Virus record (IMG/VR): IMGVR_UViG_2711768070_000020
Direction: 5' to 3' (one strand)
Source of the DNA: a virus
Taxonomy: Duplodnaviria > Heunggongvirae > Uroviricota > Caudoviricetes
Length of the DNA: 11,069 bases
The notes beneath the pieces are model-generated. The model did not search any database. It was not told where the DNA came from and saw only the letters and a program-made list of their open reading frames with translations. Each line of letters opens with the position of its first letter. Within the stretch, counting starts at the first letter, position 1. A program made the position numbers and the translations under genes. Below are positions 382 through 11,069 of this stretch, one piece after another.

Positions 382-681
382 ATGAAACTTAAATATCCTG
401 GCTTAACTGACAGCGGCAAAACTCGCACTAAATTCATGCGCGGGGATATTTACCGCGACCAGTACGGCGGCACGGTAATGATTAAGGGCGTGGAGGAACG
501 GCGCGTAACCTACCATCGTGAAGGCTACGAATATGATTGCGTGATGCCTGTTTATCAGTTCCGGCGTGATTTTTCTCTGGTACAGGCAGCGCCCCGCAGT
601 AAACCAACCAGCAGGGAGAAAGCACGCGCCAATATTCAGGAAATAAAAAAGATGCTTAACGTATTCAGGGGTAAAAAATGA
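382..681 (+). CDS. Hypothetical protein (99 aa), translationally coupled to the downstream replication gene
   Basis: ORF 382..681. Its TGA (679-681) overlaps the ATG (678-680) of the next gene in an ATGA arrangement. GGGGA lies upstream of the ATG. No family recognised. Confidence 0.55.
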   Translation: MKLKYPGLTDSGKTRTKFMRGDIYRDQYGGTVMIKGVEERRVTYHREGYEYDCVMPVYQFRRDFSLVQAAPRSKPTSREKARANIQEIKKMLNVFRGKK

Positions 682-2810
682 AACTGGCACCGAACGTAAA
701 AAAACAGCCACGCGGAATAAAACACAAAGACACAGAGGTGATTATTTTCGCGGGTAGTGATGCGTGGGCACATGCAAAACAGTGGCAGGAGCAGGACGGC
801 CCCGCATCCGGCGATAATGTGCCTCCTGTGTGGCTTGGGGAGCAGCAGTTATCAGAACTGGATAAGCTGCAAATTGTGCCGGAAGGCAGAAAATCCGTGC
901 GCATATTCAGGGCCGGACATCTTGCACCAGTAATGATCAAGGCGATTGGTCAAAAGCTGGCGGCGGCTGGTGTACAGGATGCAAATTTTTATCCTGAGGG
1001 TATGCACGGTCAGAAGGTGGAGAACTGGCGCGAATATCTGGCCCGTGAGCGGCAGAATCTTTCTGATGGTCTGGTTATTGAGTTTCCGGTAAAGAAAAAA
1101 GATACCGGAAGCCATAGCGATGACGAATTAAAGCCACGCGTTGAAAGTCGCGCCGATGGTGTTTTCTGGGTAACGCCCAAAGTGGATAAGCAGTCAGGCG
1201 AAATTATCCGGCCTGAGACGTGGTTATGTTCTCCGCTTGAACTACTGGGAACGGGGACGATCGGTAAAGAGCATTACCGCGTGATGCGCTGGAAAAAAAC
1301 CGCAAACCATGAAGTCATCACAATGGCGATCCCGTGTGGTGGTATCGGCGACCGTGACGGCTGGCGGTTACTTAAAGATCACGGGCTGAACGTGACAACC
1401 AACGGCAAATACAGGGCAATCCTGGCGGACTGGATGCAGTTAAGCGGAAGCCATGAGGAATGGCAGTTAAGCACAACAACGGGCTGGCATTTTGGCGCGT
1501 ACATCATGCCGGACGGTTCGATCATTGGTGAATCTGAAAAACCGATCCTGTTTACCGGAAAAAGCGCCGCGATTAACGGTTATTCCGTGGCGGGCACGGC
1601 GGATGGCTGGCGCGACAGCGTGGCGCGGCTGGCTGGCGGTAATGCCTCAATGATACTGGGTGTGGCAACGTCACTGGCAGCGCCTTTAATTGGCCTTGTG
1701 GGTGCTGACGGCTTCGGGGTGCATCTTTTCGAACAGTCATCGGCAGGTAAGACCACCACGCAGAACATCGCATCAAGTTTATGGGGAGAGCCGGACGCGC
1801 AGCGGCTGACCTGGTACGGCACGGCGTTAGGTATTGCCAATGAGGCCGAGGCCCATAATGACGGGCTTTTACCACTGGATGAGATAGGCCAGGCCGGAAA
1901 TGCGCGGGAAGTGTCAACGTCTGCTTATACGCTGTTTAACGGTTCAGGGAAATTGCAGGGGGCGAAGGATGGCGGCAACAGGGAGATCAAACACTGGCGA
2001 ACGGTGGCAATCAGCACCGGAGAAATGGACGTTGAGACATTCCTCAAAAGTGAGGGGATAAAAGTTAAGGCGGGGCAGCTTGTCCGACTGCTTAACGTTC
2101 CGATGGAAAAAGCCACGAAATTTCACGAATACAGCAACGGTAAGGAACATGCTGACGCGTTAAAGGATGCCTGGACAGCAAATCACGGGGCGGCGGGTCG
2201 TGAGTGGGTTAAATGGCTGGCAGGCCACCAGCAGGAGGCAAAGGACACGGTAAGGGAATGCCGCGAACGGTGGCGCAACCTGATACCGGAGAGTTACGGC
2301 GAGCAGGTCCACCGCGTGGGTGAACGTTTCGCCATACTGGAGGCCGCGCTTGTGCTTTCCGGTCATGTAACTGGCTGGGTCGTGCAGGAATGCCGCGACG
2401 CGATACAGCATAACTTTAATGCCTGGGTGAAGGAGTTCGGCACGGGTAACAGGGAATTTAAACAGATGGTTGAACAGGCTGAGGCGTTTTTGTCGTCGTT
2501 TGGGTTTAGCCGCTACCTTCCGTACCCCAATACAGATGAGCGTGATTTACCGATTAAAGAGCTTGCCGGATACAGAAAAGGGAGCATTCGCAACGAAGAT
2601 GACGAGATGCGCTATTACACGTTCCCGCACGTGTTTGAGAGTGAGATAGCGAAGGGATTTAATCCGGCGCATTTTGCGCGTGCCCTGGATGCTGCCGGAA
2701 TGCTGGAGAAGGGAAGCGATCGCCGATACAAAAAAAAGGCGCTGGGCAAGATTGGGGGTAAGCAGCATGTTTTTTACGTGCTGATGTTCCAGCCTGATGA
2801 TGAAGATTAA
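678..2810 (+). CDS. Primase/helicase-type replication initiator (Pri/Rep-like, 710 aa) with a P-loop-like motif
   Basis: Long ORF with AGGGGT 6 nt upstream of the ATG. Contains a P-loop-like motif SAGKTT (nt ~1737-1760). An iteron array follows immediately, which is the characteristic rep-ori arrangement of PICI/satellite replicons. Exact family not verifiable without a search. Confidence 0.7.
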   Translation: MKLAPNVKKQPRGIKHKDTEVIIFAGSDAWAHAKQWQEQDGPASGDNVPPVWLGEQQLSELDKLQIVPEGRKSVRIFRAGHLAPVMIKAIGQKLAAAGVQDANFYPEGMHGQKVENWREYLARERQNLSDGLVIEFPVKKKDTGSHSDDELKPRVESRADGVFWVTPKVDKQSGEIIRPETWLCSPLELLGTGTIGKEHYRVMRWKKTANHEVITMAIPCGGIGDRDGWRLLKDHGLNVTTNGKYRAILADWMQLSGSHEEWQLSTTTGWHFGAYIMPDGSIIGESEKPILFTGKSAAINGYSVAGTADGWRDSVARLAGGNASMILGVATSLAAPLIGLVGADGFGVHLFEQSSAGKTTTQNIASSLWGEPDAQRLTWYGTALGIANEAEAHNDGLLPLDEIGQAGNAREVSTSAYTLFNGSGKLQGAKDGGNREIKHWRTVAISTGEMDVETFLKSEGIKVKAGQLVRLLNVPMEKATKFHEYSNGKEHADALKDAWTANHGAAGREWVKWLAGHQQEAKDTVRECRERWRNLIPESYGEQVHRVGERFAILEAALVLSGHVTGWVVQECRDAIQHNFNAWVKEFGTGNREFKQMVEQAEAFLSSFGFSRYLPYPNTDERDLPIKELAGYRKGSIRNEDDEMRYYTFPHVFESEIAKGFNPAHFARALDAAGMLEKGSDRRYKKKALGKIGGKQHVFYVLMFQPDDED

Positions 2811-2832
2811 TCCCCTGTGTGAGGAAAAAAAT

Positions 2833-3148
2833 TGCGGGTTATGCGGGTTATCCTGTGTATAAGTGTATTAAGTGTATGAATATAAAGGAAATCAATAACC
2901 CGCACGTAACCCGCAAAAGGGCATTTATAACCCGCAAAAGCACGATTATAACCCGCAGGCGAATAACTGAAGTAACACCGGACAGTCATGCGTAACCCGC
3001 AGAAAAAACCCCGTTTGCGGGTTATTTTGAGCGTTTTGCGGGTTACGTGGTGAGCAAATAATAAACAGGGTGTTTTGCAACATGCTGATATAAAAGGGTA
3101 AAAAATGGTTAGCACGCTAAGATAACCCAATAACCCGCATAACCCGCA
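2833..3148. repeat. Iteron array / putative origin of replication: 11 copies of 9-mer TAACCCGCA (both orientations), followed by an AT tract
   Basis: TGCGGGTTA at 2833-2841, 2842-2850, 3016-3024, 3037-3045; TAACCCGCA at 2896-2904, 2907-2915, 2928-2936, 2949-2957, 2993-3001, 3131-3139, 3140-3148; partial TAACCCA at 3123-3129. (TA)n tract tatatatatataaa at ~3156-3170. Non-coding on + strand. Confidence 0.8.
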
Positions 3149-3182
3149 CATGTTTCTATATATATATAAATTGAGGTGGCAA

Positions 3183-3434
3183 ATGACCAGAACACGCAGA
3201 GACAGAACAGAGCCGAAATATAAAGCGTTAGATATAACAGAGCTGGCCTTAAAGGTGGCAATCAGAACGATAGACCGACACGTAGGGGAAGGATACGCGA
3301 AGGAACATCCCGACCTGATAAGCGCATTCATGACCACAGCAGCGGCAAACTTTGCCACGTTGACAGAACGGGAGATTGCCGAAGCGGAACAGGTAACAAC
3401 CATCAACGTTAAAACCGGAGAGTTGAAATCATGA
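3183..3434 (+). CDS. Hypothetical protein (83 aa)
   Basis: ORF 3150..3434 with ATG at 3183 preceded by GAGGTGG (MTRTRRDR...). Stop overlaps the next start (ATGA at 3431-3434). No family recognised. Confidence 0.5.
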   Translation: MTRTRRDRTEPKYKALDITELALKVAIRTIDRHVGEGYAKEHPDLISAFMTTAAANFATLTEREIAEAEQVTTINVKTGELKS

Positions 3435-3736
3435 GCGAACCAAAATTTGGTGAAAAACTTTACAAGCACAACGGACGGATCACGATTCAGCAAATAAGCG
3501 CAGCTACACCAGGCTGGTGGGTTGAAACAGACGAAGGATCCTCACCCGTGGCATCATGGGCGCTTTGTGTGCTTAGTTACCCTGACCGCGATGTGTATCA
3601 GGATATTCTGCCTGTGATATCCACTGACAAAGGCATGAAACCCGTAGACATCAAAAACATGGGTTTTCAGTGCGTAATGCTCACTGAAAAAATGATGGAA
3701 GAGATGAAAAAGAATAACGCCGGATCGCTTCACTGA
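3431..3736 (+). CDS. Hypothetical protein (101 aa)
   Basis: ORF 3431..3736, coupled to the upstream ORF by an ATGA overlap. No family recognised. Confidence 0.5.
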   Translation: MSEPKFGEKLYKHNGRITIQQISAATPGWWVETDEGSSPVASWALCVLSYPDRDVYQDILPVISTDKGMKPVDIKNMGFQCVMLTEKMMEEMKKNNAGSLH

Positions 3737-3745
3737 GGTGGCAAT

Positions 3746-4156
3746 ATGACAGCACAAATTGCAGCTTACGGGCGGCTGGTGGACGACCCGCAGGTAAAAC
3801 AGACCAGCAAGGGTACACCGATGACGCTGGCGCGTATGGCGGTATCGCTGCCATGCAGCCAGGCACAGGATGGACAGGCGACGTTATGGCTATCGGTCAT
3901 CGCATTTGGTAAGCAGGCCGACTTCCTGGCTAAACATCAAAAAGGCGACGTTGCCAGCGTATCCGGCACGATGCAGGTCAGCCAGTGGACCGGACAGAAC
4001 GGGGAAACGCGGCAGGGTTATCAGGTTATTGCAGACAGCGTAATCAGTGCCCGTGCGGCACGTCCTGGTGGGAGCCGACGCAAGACCACAGGCACACAGG
4101 GTAATCAGCCACCAGCGGGAGGCGATGACCCTTACGGTGATGATATTCCGTTCTGA
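3746..4156 (+). CDS. ssb: Single-stranded DNA-binding protein (short SSB, 136 aa) with canonical C-terminal acidic tip ...DDIPF
   Basis: GAGGTGG RBS 6 nt upstream of the ATG. N-terminal OB-fold-like pattern (GRLVDDPQV..., W..VIAFGKQADFLAKHQKGDVASVSGTMQVSQWTGQNGE) parallels bacterial SSB. Gly/Pro/Gln-rich linker and terminal PYGDDIPF match the SSB C-terminal protein-interaction tail. Confidence 0.75.
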   Translation: MTAQIAAYGRLVDDPQVKQTSKGTPMTLARMAVSLPCSQAQDGQATLWLSVIAFGKQADFLAKHQKGDVASVSGTMQVSQWTGQNGETRQGYQVIADSVISARAARPGGSRRKTTGTQGNQPPAGGDDPYGDDIPF

Positions 4157-4168
4157 GGGGTGGGGACG

Positions 4169-4441
4169 ATGGTACATGACCGCATAGCGGAAGAACTGGA
4201 GGCGAAAGGCTTTTACCGGAGAGCGTCGGCGCGATGGGGTGAAGTCATGCAACTGGTGGAGACAGACAAGGAACGGCATCAGGTTACGATGCGACGGCTG
4301 GAATGTTCCAGGAAGGCACAGAGGCCACCGGAGCCGCCGGATAATTACGGAGACCTGAAAAAGGCGGTCGATCGCACTTATGCCGAAATGGGTATGGATG
4401 GTGCTGGTGATGAAATATGGCGAAATTACCAGGACAGATAA
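4169..4441 (+). CDS. Small putative transcriptional regulator, tentatively PerC-like (90 aa; alternative GTG start at 4160)
   Basis: ORF 4160..4441 with ATG at 4169. The N-terminal segment IAEELEAKGFYRRASARWGEVM resembles what I recall of the PerC/Pch family of small activators found on enterobacterial islands. Assignment is from memory only. Confidence 0.4.
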   Translation: MVHDRIAEELEAKGFYRRASARWGEVMQLVETDKERHQVTMRRLECSRKAQRPPEPPDNYGDLKKAVDRTYAEMGMDGAGDEIWRNYQDR

Positions 4442-4447
4442 TCACAC

Positions 4448-4470
4448 AGCCGGAGCAATCCGGCTTTTTG
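4448..4470 (+). terminator. Rho-independent terminator after the small-gene cluster
   Basis: Stem AGCCGGA (4448-4454), loop GCAA, stem TCCGGCT (4459-4465), followed by TTTTT (4465-4469), directly after the stop at 4441. Confidence 0.6.
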
Positions 4471-4590
4471 TCATGTTTTGTAAATTATTTGTTCGTGGTT
4501 GTTCCACGTTGTTCGCTGACCGGATCGGCATATTTTACCCGAACTGAATCATGATTATTCTCGCCCGTGGTGCCAGGACGCTGGGGCCAC

Positions 4591-4638
4591 TTTCCCGCCT
4601 GTTAATGTGCTCGCCAATATTCATTACCAGGCGGGAAA
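4591..4638. promoter_or_regulatory. Perfect 11-bp inverted repeat TTTCCCGCCTG-N26-CAGGCGGGAAA upstream of the capsid operon; candidate operator/activator site or 5' leader structure
   Basis: Left arm 4591-4601 and right arm 4628-4638 are exact reverse complements. Located in the 287-bp intergenic region ~90 bp upstream of the capsid gene start. No U-tract follows, so it is not a typical terminator. Confidence 0.35.
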
Positions 4639-4728
4639 ACGATCGGTGCGATTGCTGATTTCCTTATGAAAAACGGTTGAGTGTTTGCCGCGTCCTGGAG
4701 TTCCTTACTTAACTTCAGGACTTTTTTT

Positions 4729-5886
4729 ATGCCGAGAATAATCGAATTACGCCAGCAGAAAACCGCCATTAAAAATCAGATGCGCGACATGCTGGAGAAC
4801 GCGGAAAAAGAAAACCGCAGCCTTAACGATGCTGAGGGCGCAAAATTTGACGAATTACGCGCTAAAGCTGAATCCCTCGATAAAGACATCTCCCGCCTTG
4901 AGGCCGTTGCTGACGAAGAGCGCAGTAAACCAGGCAAAAACAGCCAGACCACTGACCCCGCCGAACTACGTCACTACATTCTGACAGGTGAAACCCGCGC
5001 ATTGAGTACAGGCGTTCCCGCTGATGGTGGTTATACCGTTATCCCCGAACTGAACACCGAAATCATGCGAATGCTGACGGATGAATCCACCATGCGCCGC
5101 ATCTGTACCGTGAAGAAAATCAGCAGCAACGAGTTTAAGCAGCTTGTTTCCGCTGGCGGTGCGACCGTTAACCACGGTGAAGAGGGTAAGGCACGCGAAC
5201 AGACCAGCACCCCGCAGATTAACGAGGTGAGCATTAAGCTGTATCCGGTCTATGCGTACCCGCGCACCACGCAGGAAATCGTGGATTTTTCCGATGTGGA
5301 CATCCTTTCATGGCTGACGGGCGAGATTGGCGACACCTTCACGGAAACCGAAGAAAGCGATCTGGTTGTGGGCGACGGTGACAAAAAAGCAAAAGGTTTT
5401 TTATCCGTACCCCGTGCAGAGAAGAACGACAAAGAGCGTGATTTTGGTACGTTGCAGGTAATTAAACCTTCCGAATCTCTGGCGTGGACATCTGCGGACC
5501 CGCTGATCGACCTGAAATTTGCATTACGTAAAAAATACCGCAAAAACGCGGTTTGGGTGGTTAACTCCACGACGGCGGCAAAACTCCAGAAGGTGAAGAA
5601 CGCGAACGGTGATTACATCTGGCGCGACCGTTTACAGGCGGGTGATCCTGATACGTTGCTGGGCCTTCCGGTCGAATATCTGGAGTTTATGCCTGATAAC
5701 GTTATTGCCCTGGGTGACTTCAAACGCGGTTACTACATTGTTGATCACGAAACAGGTGTTCGCACCAGACCGGACAACCTCACAGAGCCGGGCTTTATCA
5801 AAATTTTCACGCAGAAATATTTAGGCGGTGGCGTGGTGGATTCGAACGCTATAAAGATTCTGGAACTGCCGCAGGACGACGATTAA
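4729..5886 (+). CDS. HK97-family major capsid protein with N-terminal coiled-coil delta (scaffold-like) domain (385 aa from ATG 4729; ORF opens at GTG 4681)
   Basis: AGGA ~9 nt upstream of ATG 4729. The charged helical N-terminus (ELRQQKTAIKNQMRDMLENAEKENRSLNDAEGAKFDELRAKAESLDKDISRLEAV) followed by a ~280-aa body is typical of HK97-type MCPs that carry their own scaffold domain. Genomic context with protease and portal supports the call. Confidence 0.85.
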   Translation: MPRIIELRQQKTAIKNQMRDMLENAEKENRSLNDAEGAKFDELRAKAESLDKDISRLEAVADEERSKPGKNSQTTDPAELRHYILTGETRALSTGVPADGGYTVIPELNTEIMRMLTDESTMRRICTVKKISSNEFKQLVSAGGATVNHGEEGKAREQTSTPQINEVSIKLYPVYAYPRTTQEIVDFSDVDILSWLTGEIGDTFTETEESDLVVGDGDKKAKGFLSVPRAEKNDKERDFGTLQVIKPSESLAWTSADPLIDLKFALRKKYRKNAVWVVNSTTAAKLQKVKNANGDYIWRDRLQAGDPDTLLGLPVEYLEFMPDNVIALGDFKRGYYIVDHETGVRTRPDNLTEPGFIKIFTQKYLGGGVVDSNAIKILELPQDDD

Positions 5887-5895
5887 CAGCACACC

Positions 5896-5925
5896 GAAGG
5901 GGCTAAAAAGCCCCTTCTCTGTTTT
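5896..5925 (+). terminator. Hairpin plus U-tract immediately after the capsid gene (partial terminator/attenuator)
   Basis: GAAGGGGC (5896-5903), loop TAAAAA, GCCCCTTC (5910-5917), then TCTGTTTT, 10 nt after the capsid stop and ahead of the protease RBS. Confidence 0.55.
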
Positions 5926-5940
5926 ACAGGTGAAAAAATT

Positions 5941-6498
5941 ATGATGAGTATGGAAATCCGGTCATCGGAAATCACCACCAGCGGCAGCAACACGCTTACG
6001 GGCTACGTTGTTCGCTGGGATAACCTTTCAGAACTGCTATGGGGCGAATTTTACGAAAAATTCCAGCGGGGGGCGTTTACTGAATGGCTTGCGGTGGGTA
6101 ATGACGTTCGCGGCCTGTATGAGCATGACCACAGCATGTTACTGGGGCGCACCCGTTCCGGTACGCTGAGACTGGAAGAGGATGACACAGGGTTACGTTT
6201 TGAACTGATCCCACCGGATACCAGCACAGGGCGGGACGTTATCGAACTGGTTAAACGTGGTGACATCTCGGGCATGAGCTTTGGCTTTCGTTCCCGTAAG
6301 GATGTATGGGATACGACAGTCGATCCATGTGTGCGTACTGTACTGATAGCGGAACTGTACGAAATTACCGTGACATCCGTACCGGCTTACCCTGATTCCG
6401 GCGTGGAGCTGGCCCGCCGTTCCCTGTATGAGCAGCACCCTGAAAAAATGCCTCGTGCGGATAATCGCCGCTGGTGGGCGGATTTAGCGGGGGTGTGA
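5941..6498 (+). CDS. HK97-family prohead (head maturation) protease, S78/U35 type (185 aa)
   Basis: AGGTGA RBS 8 nt upstream of the ATG. Sequence pattern (LTGYVVRWDNLSE..., GLYEHDHSMLLGRT, ISGMSFGF, ITVTSVPAYPDS) is typical of HK97-type prohead proteases. Positioned between capsid and portal genes. Confidence 0.8.
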   Translation: MMSMEIRSSEITTSGSNTLTGYVVRWDNLSELLWGEFYEKFQRGAFTEWLAVGNDVRGLYEHDHSMLLGRTRSGTLRLEEDDTGLRFELIPPDTSTGRDVIELVKRGDISGMSFGFRSRKDVWDTTVDPCVRTVLIAELYEITVTSVPAYPDSGVELARRSLYEQHPEKMPRADNRRWWADLAGV

Positions 6499-6499
6499 T

Positions 6500-7711
6500 A
6501 TGTGGCCTTTCAGAAGAAAAAAAGAGCAGCGCAGCATGACGCTTGATGAGTTTATGGCGCTGGCTGGCACATCGAACACGGGGGCGGGTGAGTACGTATC
6601 ATCGGGGACAGCGGAATCACTGCCCGCCGTCATGAACGCCGTCACGGTCATCTCTGAGGCGGTGGCTACCATGCCGTGTTACCTGTACCTGGTACGCAAT
6701 GAGAAGGGGAAGGAGGCCCGAGAGTGGCTTGATTCTCATCCGGTCGATCACATCCTCAACGAGCGCCCGAACGCATGGCAAACCCCCTACCAGTTTAAGC
6801 GAATGATGATCCGCCACTGCCTGTTAAACGGTAATGCTTATGCGGTGATTCGGTGGGGGCGTGATGGTTTTCCGGTGGCTTTACATCCTTACCCGCCGCA
6901 GTCGGTGAACGTGGAGCAGACAGGTGAGCATAACTGGCGCTACTGCATCACTGACGCCTACACCGGAAACACCCGCAACTATTTACCGTGGGAGGTTCTC
7001 CACCTTCGTTACTCCACGGATGACGGTTTTATGGGGCGCTCACCTGTAACCATCTGCCGCGAATCGCTGGGGCTTGGGCTGGCCCAACAACGCCACGGCG
7101 CGAGCGTGATGCGTGATGGCATGATGGCGGCAGGGGTTATCACGTCAGGCGAGTGGCTGGACGGCGTGAAGGGTAAACAGGCATTAGCCGCACTGGAACG
7201 CTACAAAGGGGCCAGAAACGCCGGAAAAACGCCCATCCTTGAAGGGGGTATGAGCTATCAGCAGCTGGGCATGAGTAATCAGGATGCTGAATGGCTGGCC
7301 TCCCGTCGCTTCACCATTGAAGACATCGCCCGAATGTTCAACGTCTCGCCGATTTTTTTGCAGGAATACAGCAACAGCACCTACAGCAATTTCAGCGAGG
7401 CAAGCCGCGCATTTCTCACCATGACGATGCGCCCGTGGCTGGCGAACTTTGAGCAGCAGATAAAAAACGCCCTGCTGGTGGCCTCGCCTGTACCTGGTAT
7501 CCGGTATCAGGTGGAGTTTGACAGCGCGGACCTGTTACGGGCCACACCTGGCGAACGCTTTGCCACCTATGAACGCGGCATCAAATCCGGCGTTATGTGC
7601 CCGAACGAAGCCCGCGAACGTGAAGGGCTGTCCCCGCGTGATGGTGGTGATGAGTTCAGCCAGGCATGGAAACAGGAAGTAAAAATCAGCGAGGGAGAAA
7701 AACCGGAATGA
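6500..7711 (+). CDS. HK97-family portal protein (403 aa; possible alternative start at ATG 6536)
   Basis: ~400-aa ORF starting 2 nt after the protease stop. Size, position and pattern (NAVTVISEAVATMP..., NGNAYAVIRW, RMFNVSPIFLQEYSNSTYSNF) fit phage portal proteins. Confidence 0.8.
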   Translation: MWPFRRKKEQRSMTLDEFMALAGTSNTGAGEYVSSGTAESLPAVMNAVTVISEAVATMPCYLYLVRNEKGKEAREWLDSHPVDHILNERPNAWQTPYQFKRMMIRHCLLNGNAYAVIRWGRDGFPVALHPYPPQSVNVEQTGEHNWRYCITDAYTGNTRNYLPWEVLHLRYSTDDGFMGRSPVTICRESLGLGLAQQRHGASVMRDGMMAAGVITSGEWLDGVKGKQALAALERYKGARNAGKTPILEGGMSYQQLGMSNQDAEWLASRRFTIEDIARMFNVSPIFLQEYSNSTYSNFSEASRAFLTMTMRPWLANFEQQIKNALLVASPVPGIRYQVEFDSADLLRATPGERFATYERGIKSGVMCPNEAREREGLSPRDGGDEFSQAWKQEVKISEGEKPE

Positions 7712-8046
7712 ACATAGGGCGACTGCGTGACAGGATAACGATTCAGACCCTGAAACAGACCAGGGATATAACCGGCGAAATACTCGAAACGTGGGTGGAC
7801 GGTCACACACTCTGGGCAAGCGTGAACATGATCAGCAGCAAGGAGGCCATTTCATCGGGTGCAGAACTGGCGACTGGAACGGTAAGGATATGGATACGCT
7901 ACAGGAAGGACATCAACGCCACCAGCCGGATAAAGGTCAATACGGGGCCGCTGGCGGGGCGTGTACTGAATATCATCGGGCAGCCGCTGCCGGATGCCGC
8001 CAGGACACGCCTTGAAATTCTTTGTCGTGAGGGCGCGGAAAAATGA
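7708..8046 (+). CDS. Phage head-closure / head-tail joining protein (SPP1 gp16-like family, 112 aa)
   Basis: ATG at 7708 overlaps the portal TGA (ATGA at 7708-7711); ORF track opens further upstream at 7666. MNIGRLRDRITIQ...TRDITGEILETW...WASV...RIWIRYRKDI...LNIIG matches the characteristic pattern of head-closure proteins. Confidence 0.75.
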   Translation: MNIGRLRDRITIQTLKQTRDITGEILETWVDGHTLWASVNMISSKEAISSGAELATGTVRIWIRYRKDINATSRIKVNTGPLAGRVLNIIGQPLPDAARTRLEILCREGAEK

Positions 8047-8339
8047 CAGAAGAACTTATCACCCTGGAAGAAGTGAAACTCCATTGCCGCATCGATGGCG
8101 ACGAGGAAGACCAGTTAATCAGCGGATACATCGCCGCATCGCTTGAGGCGTGCCAGATACACATAGGCAGGCGCTTTGATGACGGGCTGGAGTTCACGCC
8201 AGCCATAAAGATTGGCTGCATGATGTTTATCGCTCACCTGTATGAAAATCGCCAGATTGTCGCGGATAACGCAAAAACACGCGTACCCATGACGATTGGT
8301 GCACTCTGGACGGCTTACCGTGATGTGGGGGTGTACTGA
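8043..8339 (+). CDS. Head-tail connector protein (gp6-like, 98 aa)
   Basis: ATGA overlap with the upstream gene. The N-terminus ITLEEVKLHCRIDGDEEDQLISGYIAASLEA matches the typical gp6-like connector pattern. Confidence 0.75.
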   Translation: MTEELITLEEVKLHCRIDGDEEDQLISGYIAASLEACQIHIGRRFDDGLEFTPAIKIGCMMFIAHLYENRQIVADNAKTRVPMTIGALWTAYRDVGVY

Positions 8340-8779
8340 TGCCGTGGCAACCATTAAGACGATGCACAGAACCAGGCTGTAACAGGCGCGTGGAGTCCGG
8401 CAAGTGTGAGGAGCACAGGCGGGCGGCATGGCGTGCAGAGGATGCCAGACGAGGACACCGCCGCGCGCGTGGGTACTCCAGACAGTGGGACAAATACCGC
8501 GCCATGTATCTGAGTAAAAACCCGTTATGCGTGCGATGCCTTGAGAAGGGGATATATACGCCCGCCGTGGTGGTGGATCACATTATCCCGATTAATGGCG
8601 GTGATGATGTTCTCTTCTGGCCCGAATGGAACCATCAGCCATTGTGCCAGGCGTGCCATAACCAGAAAACGAAATGGCTTGATCCGGCAACAAAAAGCAA
8701 GCGTGCCGCAGGTGGATTTCGTGAAGAGGAAGAACGGGCCGCTAACCGCAATAACTGGATGTATGACGCTGATGAATGA
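8339..8779 (+). CDS. Phage-associated HNH endonuclease (146 aa), packaging-associated
   Basis: Start overlaps the connector stop by 1 nt. Cys-rich with an HNH core (CVRCLEKG...VVDHIIPINGGDD...NHQPLCQACHNQKT). Located immediately upstream of terS/terL, as in HK97-like cos packaging modules. Confidence 0.85.
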   Translation: MPWQPLRRCTEPGCNRRVESGKCEEHRRAAWRAEDARRGHRRARGYSRQWDKYRAMYLSKNPLCVRCLEKGIYTPAVVVDHIIPINGGDDVLFWPEWNHQPLCQACHNQKTKWLDPATKSKRAAGGFREEEERAANRNNWMYDADE

Positions 8780-8945
8780 GCGGGAACAAAACCGCCTTAT
8801 CCGTGGACTTATAAGGCAGCGTGACGCATGGAAGACACAGGAAACAGGGCATAAAGATAAAGCGTCAGGACGCGCAGAACGCATCACAGCGAAGCGATTA
8901 ACCGACCGTGACTGCGAGGTTATGGAATGTTTCCGCAATCGCTGA
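8763..8945 (+). CDS. Possible small basic protein (60 aa) overlapping the 3' end of the HNH gene
   Basis: Downstream part of six-frame ORF 8541..8945, taken from ATG 8763 (alternative ATG 8772). Fills the space between HNH and the putative cos region. No RBS or family support; could be non-coding. Confidence 0.25.
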   Translation: MTLMNEREQNRLIRGLIRQRDAWKTQETGHKDKASGRAERITAKRLTDRDCEVMECFRNR

Positions 8946-9067
8946 TGAGGCTGTATGACGGGGTGGGGGGCGTTTTCAGGACAAACCCGCCCCCGCCGGG
9001 CACCGAACGCCTCCTCAAATTTTTATGCACGGGAATTTTTTGAAAAATAATCTGACGAAAAATAAAC
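8946..9067. other. Putative cos/packaging-initiation region: GC-rich dyad followed by an AT-rich tract upstream of terS
   Basis: G-run ACGGGGTGGGGGGCG (~8958-8972) and C-run CCCGCCCCCGCCGGG (8986-9000) contain a 7-bp dyad GGGGGCG/CGCCCCC (8966-8972 / 8988-8994). This is followed by A/T-rich AAATTTTTATGCACGGGAATTTTTTGAAAAATAATCTGACGAAAAATAAACA. Lies between HNH and terS, where cos sites are found in HNH-terminase systems. Confidence 0.45.
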
Positions 9068-9424
9068 ATGGCAAGACCACCGAAAGCCCCCGCCTACCTT
9101 GATGACATCGCCGTAAAGCAGTGGCGGGAAAAATCGCGCCAGCTTGCGGAACGGGGAGACCTCACCCCCGCCGACTGGAGTAATCTCGAACTGTATTGCG
9201 TCAACTACTCGATATACAGGAAAGCCGTCGCAGACCTTGCGGCACGCGGGTTCAGCATTGTTAACAGTCAGGGCGGAGAGAGCAGAAACCCCGCATTAAG
9301 CGCGAAATCCGACGCTGAAAGAGTGATGATAAAAATGGCCTCCTTGCTTGGTTTTGACCCGATAAGCCGCCGTAAAAATCCACCGGAAACAGAAGAAGAG
9401 GACGAGCTTGACCACCTGGAATAA
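9068..9424 (+). CDS. terS: Terminase small subunit, P27 family (118 aa)
   Basis: MARPPKAPAYLDD...W...LAERGDLTPADWSNLELYCVNYSIYRKA...SAKSDAERVMIKMASLLGFDPISRRK follows the characteristic P27-family TerS pattern. Directly upstream of terL. Confidence 0.85.
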   Translation: MARPPKAPAYLDDIAVKQWREKSRQLAERGDLTPADWSNLELYCVNYSIYRKAVADLAARGFSIVNSQGGESRNPALSAKSDAERVMIKMASLLGFDPISRRKNPPETEEEDELDHLE

Positions 9425-11069
9425 GTACGCAGAAGACGTAAAAACGGGCAAAATTCCGGCCTGTAAACGGTTAAAACAGGCCGTTAAACGGTACTTTTCG
9501 GACCTTAAAAGTCCCCTTTACACGTTCGATAGTGAGGTTGTGGAGCGGTTTATTGCCTTTTCAAGGGTGTGCCCGCACGTAAAAGGGCCGTTGCGTGGCA
9601 GACCCATTGAGCTGGAGCCGTGGCAGCAGTTCGCCTTTGCGTGCATCCTGGGTTTTAAGGTTAAGGCCACCGGACGGCGCAAATACTCGAGCGCTTTTAT
9701 CGAAGTACCGCGAAAAAATGCGAAATCCACGACCGCCGCGATTCTGGCTGACTGGTTTCTGATTATGGAGAACGGGCAGCAGGATATTTACACCGCAGCG
9801 GTGAGCCGTGACCAGGCACGGATCGTGTTTGATGATGCGCGTCAGATGTGCCTTTTATCCCGACCGTTACGCAGGCGGGTGAATATTCAGGCCCACAAGG
9901 TGATACACCCGAAAACCAACAGCCTGTTAAAGCCGCTGGCAGCAAAAGCGGCAACCATCGAGGGGACAAACCCGAGTCTTGCCATTGTGGACGAATATCA
10001 CCTGCACCCCGATAACGGCGTTTATTCCGCGCTTGAGCTGGGGATGGGTGCACGTCCCGAAGGGCTGTTATTTGCCATTACCACATCGGGAAGTAACGTC
10101 GTTTCAGCCTGTAAGCAGCACTATGATTATTGCTGCCAGATCCTGGACGGCGAAGAGGTCAACGAATCGCTTTTTGTGCTGATTTACGAGCTGGACGATG
10201 AAAACGAGGTTGACGATCCGGCGATGTGGATAAAGGCGAATCCCAATATCGATGTTTCCGTTGATCGTGAAAAACTGGCCTCAACCATCCAGAAAGCGCG
10301 GGGTATTCCGTCGCAGTGGGTGGAGATGATGACAAAGCGGTTTAACATCTGGTGCCAGGGGGCCACCCCGTGGATGGGTAACGGGGCGTGGGCTGAGTGT
10401 GCCGGAACGTTCACAGAGGAAGATTTACACGGCCAGGAATGTTACGCGGGGCTTGATTTGTCATCCACAAGCGACATTTCCAGCGTGTGCTATGCCTTTC
10501 CGGTCGGCAAAAAAATTATGCTGCTTTCCCGTCACTATCTGCCGGAATTTCAGCTACAGAACCCCGCCAACAAGAACCGGGCCATTTATCGCCAGTGGGC
10601 TAAATCGGGCTGGTTGCGGATAACGCCGGGCGACTGCATTGATTACGACCGGATCCGCGATGACATCATGGAGGACGCGGAAAAATTTGATATCAGGCTG
10701 GTGGGCTTTGATACGTGGAACGCCACGCATCTCAGGACGCAATTACAGGGGGCAGGGTTTGAGGTTGAGCCGTTCCCGCAAACCTATCTGAGATTCAGTC
10801 CGGCGGCGAAATCGTTCGAAGTTTTTGTTAACCGCAGGGTGATAGTCCATCGTGATGATCCGGTGTTGTCGTGGTCGATGAGTAACGTCGTGATGCAGAG
10901 TGACGCGAACGCCAATATCAAGCCAAACAAGAAAAAATCACCGAACAAGATAGACCCGAGCGTGGCGGCACTGATGGCGTTTGGCACATTCCAGGCAGAG
11001 CATGAAGATTTTGCTTTTGATATAAGCGACAGCCACCGCGAAAAACTGGAAGAATTTAACGGGGTGTGA
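9408..11069 (+). CDS. terL: Terminase large subunit (Terminase_1/HK97-like, 553 aa); apparent TTG start overlapping terS by 17 nt
   Basis: Walker A-like PRKNAKSTTAA, Walker B-like IVDEYH, and a C-terminal nuclease-like region. N-terminus TTWNKYAEDVKTGKIPACKRLKQAVKRYFSDL is typical of TerL. First in-frame start is TTG at 9408 with GAGGAC 5 nt upstream. Stop TGA at 11067-11069 is the last triplet of the window. Confidence 0.9.
   Translation: MTTWNKYAEDVKTGKIPACKRLKQAVKRYFSDLKSPLYTFDSEVVERFIAFSRVCPHVKGPLRGRPIELEPWQQFAFACILGFKVKATGRRKYSSAFIEVPRKNAKSTTAAILADWFLIMENGQQDIYTAAVSRDQARIVFDDARQMCLLSRPLRRRVNIQAHKVIHPKTNSLLKPLAAKAATIEGTNPSLAIVDEYHLHPDNGVYSALELGMGARPEGLLFAITTSGSNVVSACKQHYDYCCQILDGEEVNESLFVLIYELDDENEVDDPAMWIKANPNIDVSVDREKLASTIQKARGIPSQWVEMMTKRFNIWCQGATPWMGNGAWAECAGTFTEEDLHGQECYAGLDLSSTSDISSVCYAFPVGKKIMLLSRHYLPEFQLQNPANKNRAIYRQWAKSGWLRITPGDCIDYDRIRDDIMEDAEKFDIRLVGFDTWNATHLRTQLQGAGFEVEPFPQTYLRFSPAAKSFEVFVNRRVIVHRDDPVLSWSMSNVVMQSDANANIKPNKKKSPNKIDPSVAALMAFGTFQAEHEDFAFDISDSHREKLEEFNGV

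Follow-up and report, generated by a model that had tools for sequence, protein, structure and literature searches.

What kind of element joins a replicon of its own to a complete head and packaging module, with tail and lysis genes missing, is the question raised by this stretch of 11,069 nucleotides, analysed here at its full length (the window). Judging from its sequence, it almost certainly comes from a capsid-forming phage-inducible chromosomal island (capsid-forming PICI, cf-PICI) some 15.8 kb long and closely allelic to EcCIEDL933, the prototype; its 11 kb would span the middle and the right-hand side of that island. The first-pass annotation had already read the locus as a cf-PICI satellite, and this reading is borne out by a shared gene order and by a DNA identity of 97.2% to the island in E. 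coli O157:H7 EDL933.

The replication gene and iteron origin, followed on the + strand by an array running from capsid to terL, lie at or near where they were first placed. Profile searches of each open reading frame, which had been recommended, gave Pfam matches far beyond chance for all the genes listed at that stage; SSB, PerC/PchE, RgdR/DUF4222 and the small ORFs at 134-376, 3183-3434, 3431-3736 and 8763-8945 had been missing from that list. The features are as follows (percentages give identity to EDL933):

134-376, + strand: small hypothetical gene kept in the PICI lineage (phrog_5796, 2e-57; 100%)
382-681, + strand: rgdR (ECs1581 type), 99-aa DUF4222 protein (DUF4222, 2e-23; 100%)
678-2810, + strand: replication initiator Pri-Rep, a primase-helicase fusion (DUF927, 1e-48; HTH_56)
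2833-3148, no strand: origin of replication with iterons, the 9-mer TAACCCGCA being present in 11 exact copies and in both orientations
about 3155-3174, no strand: AT-rich (TA)n stretch adjoining the iterons, TCTATATATATATAAATTGA (palindromic hits I16, I17, I25)
3183-3434, + strand: hypothetical 83-aa gene (phrog_1231, function unassigned, 3e-51; 97.6%)
3431-3736, + strand: hypothetical 101-aa gene (phrog_27268, 1e-69)
3746-4156, + strand: single-stranded DNA-binding protein (Pfam SSB, 4e-17; 98.5%)
4169-4441, + strand: PerC-family regulator, PchE of O-island 51 (Pfam PerC, 1e-43)
4729-5886, + strand: major capsid protein, HK97 fold, 385 aa (Phage_capsid, 2e-61)
5941-6498, + strand: prohead maturation serine protease (Peptidase_S78, 4e-46; 95.7%)
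6500-7711, + strand: portal protein (Phage_portal, 1e-90; 99.3%)
7708-8046, + strand: head closure protein, Hc1 type (Phage_HCP, 5e-24; phrog_25 'head closure Hc1')
8043-8339, + strand: head-tail adaptor, Ad1/gp6 type (Phage_connect_1, 8e-12; phrog_40 'head-tail adaptor Ad1')
8339-8779, + strand: HNH endonuclease, terminase partner in cos cutting (Pfam HNH, 1e-8; 98.6%)
8763-8945, + strand: 60-aa hypothetical gene between hnh and terS (phrog_3173, 4e-36; annotated in RefSeq)
8946-9067, no strand: putative cos region, G/C-rich GGGGTGGGGGGCG...CCCGCCCCCGCCGGGC, then an A/T-rich stretch just before terS
9068-9424, + strand: small terminase subunit, P27 family (Terminase_4, 1e-23; 99.2%)
9408-11069, + strand: large terminase subunit, ATPase and nuclease (TerL_ATPase, 4e-25; TerL_nuclease, 3e-50)

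The head and packaging module is thus complete (capsid, protease, portal, head closure, adaptor, HNH, TerS and TerL), while no ORF in the window matched tail, tape-measure, baseplate or lysis families in either Pfam or PHROG, in agreement with what had first been noticed. EcCIEDL933, the prototype capsid-forming PICI, was earlier annotated as O-island 51, CP-933C or Sp7; it measures 15.4 kb in strain EDL933 and carries int, alpA, rep, capsid, protease, portal, connectors, HNH, terS and terL, tail genes being absent (bioRxiv 10.1101/2022.09.08.507074). From rgdR to terL the window has the same gene set and order, with per-protein identities of 90-100% and two small indels. It differs in a 300-bp insertion, marked by a break in the blastn alignment at 3435-3734, which holds the 101-aa gene (no tblastn hit in locus L002 and no PADLOC match), and in the lack of about 330 bp found in EDL933 between perC and the capsid gene. 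Among 50,697 phage genome records none covered more than 18% of the window, the top identity being 77%; at the sequence level, the window is not a phage fragment. Since EcCIEDL933 has already been published, studied by experiment and described in detail, the window adds nothing new.

The left part of the window holds small and regulatory genes. The product of 134-376, which had no match in Pfam and PADLOC searches, measures 80 aa in RefSeq and 87 aa if started from TTG 113. The gene at 382-681 encodes RgdR, known as an activator of LEE1 and of type III secretion from the LEE locus; the protein carries RGD at residues 20-22, and D10, Q27, K35, H45 and R61 match the EHEC allele (PMC3378721). The PerC-family protein of O-island 51 has been named PchE (PMC3378721), and its counterpart here is the most divergent protein in comparison to EDL933 (89.9% identical).

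The replicon is composed of Pri-Rep, the 11-iteron origin and the SSB. Pri-Rep, 99.9% identical to EcCIEDL933 Rep, has a DUF927 helicase core and a Cch-type winged helix at the C-terminus; it matches phrog_1139 'DNA primase' (8e-191) and PDB 8tch 'Pathogenicity island protein' (2.5e-12), and its residues 1-150 match primase phrogs. Within the window TAACCCGCA is confined to 2833-3148, with 11 copies against 0.13 expected, a number reached in none of 200 shuffles. The iterons are laid out as nested inverted groups, in which repeat families, inverted arms and tandem arrays were detected, and they are followed by the TATATATATA stretch (about 3155-3174), a likely DNA unwinding site. Rep would bind the TAACCCGCA iterons and open the adjacent (TA)n stretch.

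The 3' end of the window is exactly the terL stop codon and its 5' end lies inside the element, so that the element's own ends, integrase and alpA are outside its view and were read from near-identical relatives; integrase, alpA and att site are all absent from the window itself. A sequence cut in this way cannot show what follows, and it could belong to a complete temperate HK97-like prophage with tail and lysis genes just beyond the 11 kb, an alternative with next to no probability. The tail genes of HK97-like phages come after the head-tail joining genes, whereas here adaptor and hnh meet at 8339, with no space for such genes in between. The closest relatives are the complete genome L001 (99.8% identical, 21 differing bases) and the contigs L009, L011 and L012, whose 18 differences from the window all fall within 87-460. 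In L001, L003-L007 and L009-L014, one 93-aa ORF only separates terL from the host genes thiM and thiD, which start about 1.3 kb past terL in the closest relatives. Upstream, only small regulatory genes were found, plus an AlpA regulator (L001, L009-L013) and a tyrosine integrase (L001); the integrase is outside the reach of L009-L013, because these loci begin inside the gene between int and alpA. Perfect 70-bp att direct repeats, spaced 15,847 bp apart, bound the element in L001. Hence the integrase and alpA, the att repeats and the tail- and lysis-free element of about 15 kb, all of which the first-pass annotation had suggested looking for, are present in these relatives, and the full phage gene content beyond terL that it had named as contradicting a satellite does not occur, since tail, tape-measure, baseplate and lysis genes are absent. 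For the closest relatives, a complete HK97-like prophage is refuted by the att-bounded 15.8 kb and the host genes after terL.

A decayed cryptic prophage, namely an HK97-like or P4-like remnant which has lost its tail and lysis genes along with its mobility, was how O-island 51 / CP-933C / Sp7 was first annotated. Some copies do decay, as in L015, where terL is broken into ORFs of 488 aa and 58 aa. Nevertheless, this explanation is very improbable for the window: all of its approximately 15 genes are intact, many of them identical across numerous contigs, and 107 complete E. coli genomes contain at least 80% of it. The same module occupies at least three chromosomal sites (thiM, phoQ and clpS), and the integrases or att repeats found there match, a pattern that argues for recent mobility. 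EcCIEDL933 itself sits between roxA and phoQ, while the window's closest relatives lie beside thiM and have another integrase (about 68% DNA identity). Moreover, the prototype, at 97% identity, undergoes induction and packaging and moves between cells at high frequency; its transfer depends on every one of its head and packaging genes, and the helper needs none of them (bioRxiv 10.1101/2022.09.08.507074).

The capsid gene had been recognised from the start, with its beginning placed at GTG 4681; the correct start is ATG 4729, in agreement with RefSeq and PDB 9gyi. Its product matches the 385-aa 'Major head protein' of 9gyi, the solved EcCIEDL933 capsid, over the full length (E 4e-255), with 4 substitutions. 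The published landmark residues of that capsid are all kept, including the cleavage motif STGVPAD at residue 93, the 227-248 loop, D257, K290, D295, E319 and R345 (bioRxiv 10.1101/2025.02.11.637232). By analogy with the prototype, the window protein is expected to assemble into a small T=4 capsid belonging to the satellite itself. A search for a sigma-70-like promoter before the capsid operon found none.

The island shares with HK97 and HK106 an HK97-fold capsid with N-terminal cleavage, an S78 protease, an HK97-family portal and a gp6-like adaptor, as well as cos packaging relying on HNH with TerS and TerL. HK97-like phages differ in being about 40 kb long (HK106 41.5 kb), in their large phage-sized heads, T=7 in the HK97 type, in their tail, lysis and lysogeny modules, and in their low sequence identity to the island proteins. 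Outside the satellite itself, the closest solved capsid protein is that of RcGTA (6tb9, 1e-46), which also builds a small head. The portal has four solved relatives, all HK97-family portals; that of RcGTA (6tba, 1e-19) is among them and is outscored by two phage portals. RcGTA is not known to have a replicon of its own; it packages host DNA at random and carries genes for a tail, in contrast to the window with its Rep-iteron replicon, dedicated terminase set and lack of tail genes.

Gene order had been described as the reverse of that in HK97-like phages, which runs terS, terL, portal, protease, capsid, adaptor, head closure. This holds for capsid-protease-portal and for head closure preceding the adaptor, but 'terminase last' is largely a mapping artefact, because the map is drawn from the integration site. 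The cos site is probably within 8946-9067, where no unusual DNA fold emerged on analysis. HNH, TerS and TerL would cut there, and with cos between HNH and terS the packaged DNA would begin with terS-terL and end with HNH. Packaged HK97 DNA is arranged in the same way. L008, a particle-derived record in permuted form, opens 22 nt before terS and closes past the small ORF; a weak homologue of the 60-aa gene stands there at the same place. Transfer is lost in an hnh mutant of EcCIEDL933 (bioRxiv 10.1101/2022.09.08.507074). The packaging order (capsid, protease, portal, head closure, adaptor, hnh, small ORF, terS, terL) is shared by the proteobacterial cf-PICIs EcCIGN02175 and KpCIDSM30104, and by the GenBank record LR881103.1.

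The left half resembles that of the classical PICIs EcCICFT073 and EcCIED1a, with int, alpA, a same-type rep, an RgdR homologue, SSB and a PerC-like gene. Classical E. coli PICIs likewise rely on alpA-dependent induction; they differ in redirecting helper packaging (Rpp) and using capsids of helper proteins, and EcCICFT073 and EcCIED1a lack capsid, portal and terminase genes. Satellite phage P4 is similar in its P4-like integrase, AlpA-type regulator, alpha-like primase-helicase and dependence on a helper for virion parts. P4 is not known to encode capsid, portal or terminase proteins, and its Sid reshapes the P2 capsid.

The proteins at 7708-8339 had been proposed to determine which helper tails can be used, and swap experiments published in 2025 proved this correct: exchanging adaptor/connector proteins that are 35-83% identical alters tail choice (bioRxiv 10.1101/2025.02.11.637232). 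The Hc1-type protein, named 'head-tail adaptor' in cf-PICI papers and in PDB 2kz4 (112 aa; matched at 4.5e-68), is probably the tail-facing one; the Ad1 type goes by 'connector' in those papers. GenBank 'Escherichia phage vB_KppS-Ant' (LR881103.1) looks like a proteobacterial cf-PICI. In comparison to the Klebsiella relative L008, portal (81%), terL (81%) and terS (83%) are similar, while head closure, the fastest-diverging head protein, is 37% and the adaptor 62% identical, matching the 35% and 63% published for EcCIEDL933 and KpCIDSM30104 (bioRxiv 10.1101/2025.02.11.637232). L008 differs also in its D5-type primase-helicase, and tblastn (E<1e-5) found no PerC, SSB or RgdR homologues in it. 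An allele which is a cf-PICI by descent and functionally unlike the prototype, using another helper tail or being non-inducible, is unlikely. It could draw on the 6 substitutions in head closure, 19 in TerL (96.6% identical) and 10 in PerC, on the extra 101-aa gene and on the tail switching in the swaps; however, those published changes of specificity occurred at 35-83% identity, and no sequence sign of function loss was found. Because Ad1 is identical to that of EcCIEDL933 and Hc1 95% identical, the window allele most likely uses HK106-type tails.

In the prototype, a helper phage (HK106, HK446) turns on alpA and island replication ensues; the island's proteins build T=4 capsids of 47.5 nm with island DNA as their sole content, and the filled tail-less capsids join pre-made helper siphovirus tails. 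The fit is decided by the two head-tail joining proteins (bioRxiv 10.1101/2025.02.11.637232). By analogy, a helper would turn on alpA in the window's element, the island would replicate and fill its own small capsids, and helper tails would then attach.

Full-length matches to the window were recovered by megablast from 5,426 complete E. coli genomes, at 99.8% identity in three O157 strains and at 97.2% in many O157:H7 genomes, among them EDL933, the source of EcCIEDL933. At least 80% of the window is present in 107 of the 5,426 genomes, and some part of it in 1,739. The encoded proteins are 90-100% identical to those of the EDL933 element and lie in identical order, with two small indels. An insertion of 300 bp found only in the window carries a 101-aa ORF (3431-3736, phrog_27268), which is absent from EcCIEDL933 and has no PADLOC or Pfam match, and about 330 bp found only in EDL933, located between perC and the capsid gene, hold a 74-aa ORF. 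EcCIEDL933 is a 15.4-kb island and the prototype of the phage-inducible chromosomal islands that form capsids (cf-PICIs), featuring int, alpA, rep, capsid, protease, portal, head-tail connectors, HNH, terS and terL but lacking tail genes (Alqurainy et al., bioRxiv 10.1101/2022.09.08.507074). The window is another allele of this prototype, and the cf-PICI-like satellite proposed in the first-pass annotation is supported both by the 97.2% DNA identity and by the matching gene set and order.

Profile searches with Pfam and PHROG recovered all genes of the array previously read from the sequence (replication protein, and capsid through terL on the + strand), and every convincing gene of the window is located on that strand:

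382-681, +: DUF4222 protein (Pfam), RgdR
678-2810, +: replication protein, DUF927 helicase with a C-terminal Cch-type HTH (Pfam)
3746-4156, +: single-stranded DNA-binding protein, SSB (Pfam)
4160/4169-4441, +: PerC family (Pfam), corresponding to PchE of O-island 51
4681/4729-5886, +: major capsid protein, Phage_capsid (Pfam, 2e-61)
5941-6498, +: maturation protease, Peptidase_S78 (Pfam, 4e-46)
6500-7711, +: portal, Phage_portal (Pfam, 1e-90)
7666/7708-8046, +: head closure protein Hc1 (PHROG), Phage_HCP (Pfam)
8043-8339, +: head-tail adaptor Ad1 (PHROG), Phage_connect_1 (Pfam)
8339-8779, +: HNH protein (Pfam)
9068-9424, +: small terminase subunit TerS, Terminase_4 (Pfam)
9408-11069, +: large terminase subunit TerL, ATPase and nuclease (Pfam)

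The window thus encodes a complete head gene set, comprising major capsid protein, protease, portal and two joining proteins (4729-8339; Pfam and PHROG), together with its own packaging genes hnh-terS-terL (Pfam). In proteobacterial cf-PICIs the published order runs from capsid, protease, portal and head connectors to hnh, terS and terL (bioRxiv 10.1101/2022.09.08.507074), and the ORFs of the window follow it, all on the + strand. Tail, baseplate and lysis families have no match anywhere in the window in either Pfam or PHROG. The replication protein was assigned by PHROG to the DNA primase/primase-helicase family (phrog_1139, 8e-191), and for the small ORFs at 134-376, 3183-3434, 3431-3736 and 8763-8945 the PHROG families matched have no assigned function. 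PADLOC gave no defence gene for any of the small ORFs, two of them taken from L001 (a locus of E. coli strain MB41-1, 99.8% identical to the window). Within the window, Rfam gave nothing at the gathering threshold, and no tRNA or tmRNA serving as integration target was found.

The pairing of a rep gene with an iteron origin, as originally annotated, is correct. The interval from the stop codon of rep (2810) to the gene that follows (3183) contains 11 exact copies of the 9-mer TAACCCGCA in both orientations, against 0.13 expected by chance; the 9-mer is absent from the rest of the window, and none of 200 shuffles gave 11 copies. Beyond the copies, which are arranged in nested inverted groups, comes a (TA)n stretch (approximately 3155-3174) that would be opened upon binding of Rep to the iterons. 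A 228-aa ORF on the - strand (2807-3493) lies over the origin; it overlaps the iterons, has no Pfam or PHROG match and was treated as spurious.

Since the window opens within the element and closes with the stop codon of terL, the element ends were taken from its relatives. In L001, a tyrosine integrase and an AlpA-family regulator (Pfam) are located upstream and a single 93-aa ORF lies downstream of terL, while the near-identical contigs L009-L013, whose loci begin downstream of the integrase, show alpA. The PICI backbone of integrase, alpA, initiator and origin is therefore present, with Rep and iterons in the window, and integrase and AlpA contributed by these relatives rather than by the window's own genome. 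The att direct repeats sought in the flanks appear in L001 as a perfect 70-bp pair (8309-8378 and 24156-24225), 15,847 bp apart. The left flank of L001 consists of host rcn genes, two small ORFs and a 79-aa HTH-like ORF, and the right flank of thiM and thiD; contigs carrying the exact TerL or HNH of the window repeat this layout as far as they extend. A full prophage with its tail genes beyond the window is excluded by these host genes on either side of a 15.8-kb element in the nearest relatives. Moreover, tail genes, which in HK97-like phages come after the head-tail joining genes, have no space here, since the adaptor gene and hnh meet at 8339. In the near-identical contigs only the 93-aa ORF separates terL from thiM, with no tail, tape-measure, baseplate or lysis gene beside terL. 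The absence of tail and lysis genes first noted within the window consequently extends to these loci, and the relatives' element, at about 15.8 kb, is far from the 35-50 kb anticipated for a complete phage.

The surroundings of the island vary among its relatives. The EDL933 element has another integrase and is inserted between roxA and phoQ. A third insertion site, beside clpS/clpA, is occupied by the same packaging module in L015 (1741-3402), another relative; the terL of this copy is broken into ORFs of 488 and 58 aa, and as such the copy is regarded as decaying. Between alpA and the first ORF of the window, L001 (10729-11775) holds Icd-like cell-division-inhibitor genes, of which one is a pseudogene, together with a YlcI/YnfO-family gene in the opposite orientation. 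Outside the window, between the 93-aa ORF and attR, the L001 element carries four copies of a 44-nt repeat (CTAACCCATTGATT...; 23616-23917), three spaced 54 nt and the fourth 150 nt beyond. At the other end, the closest contigs (L009, L011 and L012) depart from the window at 18 positions, all confined to a mosaic patch at 87-460, and are identical to it over 461-11069; none of the loci compared matches the window at 100%. Within the patch the window carries the EDL933 allele, and the proteins encoded there do not differ from those of EDL933, pointing to recombination between two island lineages over a short tract.

The window is not a piece of a phage genome: the top-ranking one of 50,697 phage records matches 18% of its length, with 77% identity, and the leading hits are themselves satellite-like or unannotated fragments. 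The second-best is L008 (LR881103.1, 1-16548), a 16.5-kb record from an induced prophage deposited as 'Escherichia phage vB_KppS-Ant'. It holds the cf-PICI gene set (int, primase, capsid through hnh, and terS-terL) with no credible tail genes, and looks like a Klebsiella cf-PICI deposited as a phage. A 765-aa 'tail length tape measure protein' annotated directly after its terL has no Pfam match and was not accepted as a tail gene; it may be a mislabelled accessory gene. Gene transfer agents, in turn, are defined by the lack of an own replicon and of a specific packaging site and by the possession of both head and tail genes, whereas the window has a Rep-iteron replicon and no tail genes.

The major capsid protein matches the solved EcCIEDL933 capsid protein (PDB 9gyi, 385 aa) over its full length (E 4e-255), and it retains the cleavage motif SxGxxAD, the loop at 227-248 and residues D257, K290, D295, E319 and R345 published for the prototype. 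Hc1 matches PDB 2kz4, a 'Putative head-tail adaptor', at 4.5e-68. After 9gyi, the nearest solved capsid relative is that of the Rhodobacter capsulatus gene transfer agent, which is also small-headed (6tb9, 1e-46); the portal of the same agent (6tba, 1e-19) is among four solved relatives of the window portal, with the phage portals 9lbn and 8cez scoring higher. Three terminator-like hairpins with T-runs frame the capsid gene region: one directly 3' of perC, between it and the capsid operon (4448-4465), one stopping 7 nt short of the capsid ATG (4692-4721), and one immediately 3' of the capsid gene (5896-5917). The position of the last fits an attenuation that would leave capsid protein in excess over the downstream products. 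A sigma-70 promoter scan gave 4 sites, against 9.3 in shuffled sequence, none of them ahead of the capsid operon.

The life cycle of the prototype has been established experimentally by others. The helper phages HK106 and HK446 induce EcCIEDL933 via alpA, and its transfer is lost upon mutation of any head or packaging gene, with the helper unaffected (bioRxiv 10.1101/2022.09.08.507074). Work on the prototype has also found that transfer persists with helper capsid mutants and fails with helper tail mutants, that the capsid has T=4 symmetry and a diameter of 47.5 nm, and that filled tail-less capsids are released and then join free tails. By analogy with this 97%-identical island, helper induction via alpA, packaging into small capsids and dependence on helper tails would be expected of the window's allele. 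That the latter differs in function from the prototype is unlikely, its sequence lending no support to such a difference. The mobilisation experiments on the prototype supersede an earlier designation, 'highly degraded P4-like cryptic prophage' (PMC3378721), with which the intact, widely conserved genes are also at odds.

Identity to L008 is high for TerS (83%), portal (81%) and TerL (81%), and lower for capsid (66%), Ad1 (62%) and Hc1 (37%). Between EcCIEDL933 and KpCIDSM30104, the published values are 35% for the 'adaptor' and 63% for the 'connector', and swaps of these two genes in EcCIEDL933 alter the tail used, HK106 or HK022 (bioRxiv 10.1101/2025.02.11.637232). On the agreement of these percentages with those of Hc1 and Ad1, the 'adaptor' of the literature appears to be the Hc1 gene (7708-8046) and the 'connector' the Ad1 gene (8043-8339). 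The earlier proposal that the proteins of 7708-8339 determine the helper tails is hence borne out by the swaps made by others in the prototype. With respect to EcCIEDL933, Ad1 is identical and Hc1 has six changed residues (A20D, M21I, E30V, I56T, S78N and V97A), and the tail partner of the window's allele is likely of the HK106 type.

The cos site would be placed in 8946-9067, since this interval lies between hnh and terS and since the L008 record is permuted to start 22 nt ahead of terS. The interval has a G/C-rich core beside an A/T-rich run immediately before terS; when the joined ends of L008 were aligned to 8880-9090, about 72 nt found in the window were missing from L008. DNA folding of 8940-9070 indicated no special structure (z = -0.07). 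With such a cos, packaged DNA would begin with terS-terL and finish with hnh, as does that of HK97. The reversed gene order remarked on in the first-pass annotation would, in its 'terminase last' part, be mostly a map convention, while the order capsid-protease-portal and the position of Hc1 ahead of Ad1 are truly unusual.

The 99-aa DUF4222 gene at 382-681 is RgdR (ECs1581), so that a virulence regulator rides on the satellite. In EHEC O157:H7, RgdR is an experimentally characterised activator of LEE1 and type III secretion and a repressor of motility (PMC3378721). The window carries the EHEC allele, with RGD at residues 20-22 and D10, Q27, K35, H45 and R61. PchE (4169-4441), whose gene lies immediately upstream of the capsid operon, shows the greatest divergence of all the proteins from EcCIEDL933 (10 of 90 residues changed). 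Both regulators are known so far solely for cross-talk with the LEE virulence locus. It is highly unlikely that they primarily serve the satellite life cycle, for example by activation of or read-through into the capsid operon, with the 101-aa gene (3431-3736) providing a new accessory function; homologues of PerC, RgdR and SSB were not found in L008 (tblastn, E<1e-5), which counts against an essential role.

Detailed knowledge of the element exists already, including its structure and the genetics of its tail specificity, and the window, an allele frequent in E. coli O157 and in strains related to it, adds nothing to the existing picture of cf-PICIs. Its practical value lies in annotation, the region being one to label as a cf-PICI and not as a 'cryptic prophage'. 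The mobile satellite also bears RgdR and PchE, both virulence regulators. The importance of cf-PICIs is that a satellite can build its own capsids and borrow tails alone, and the pairing of tail-less capsids with the tails of different phages explains the spread of identical islands across species.
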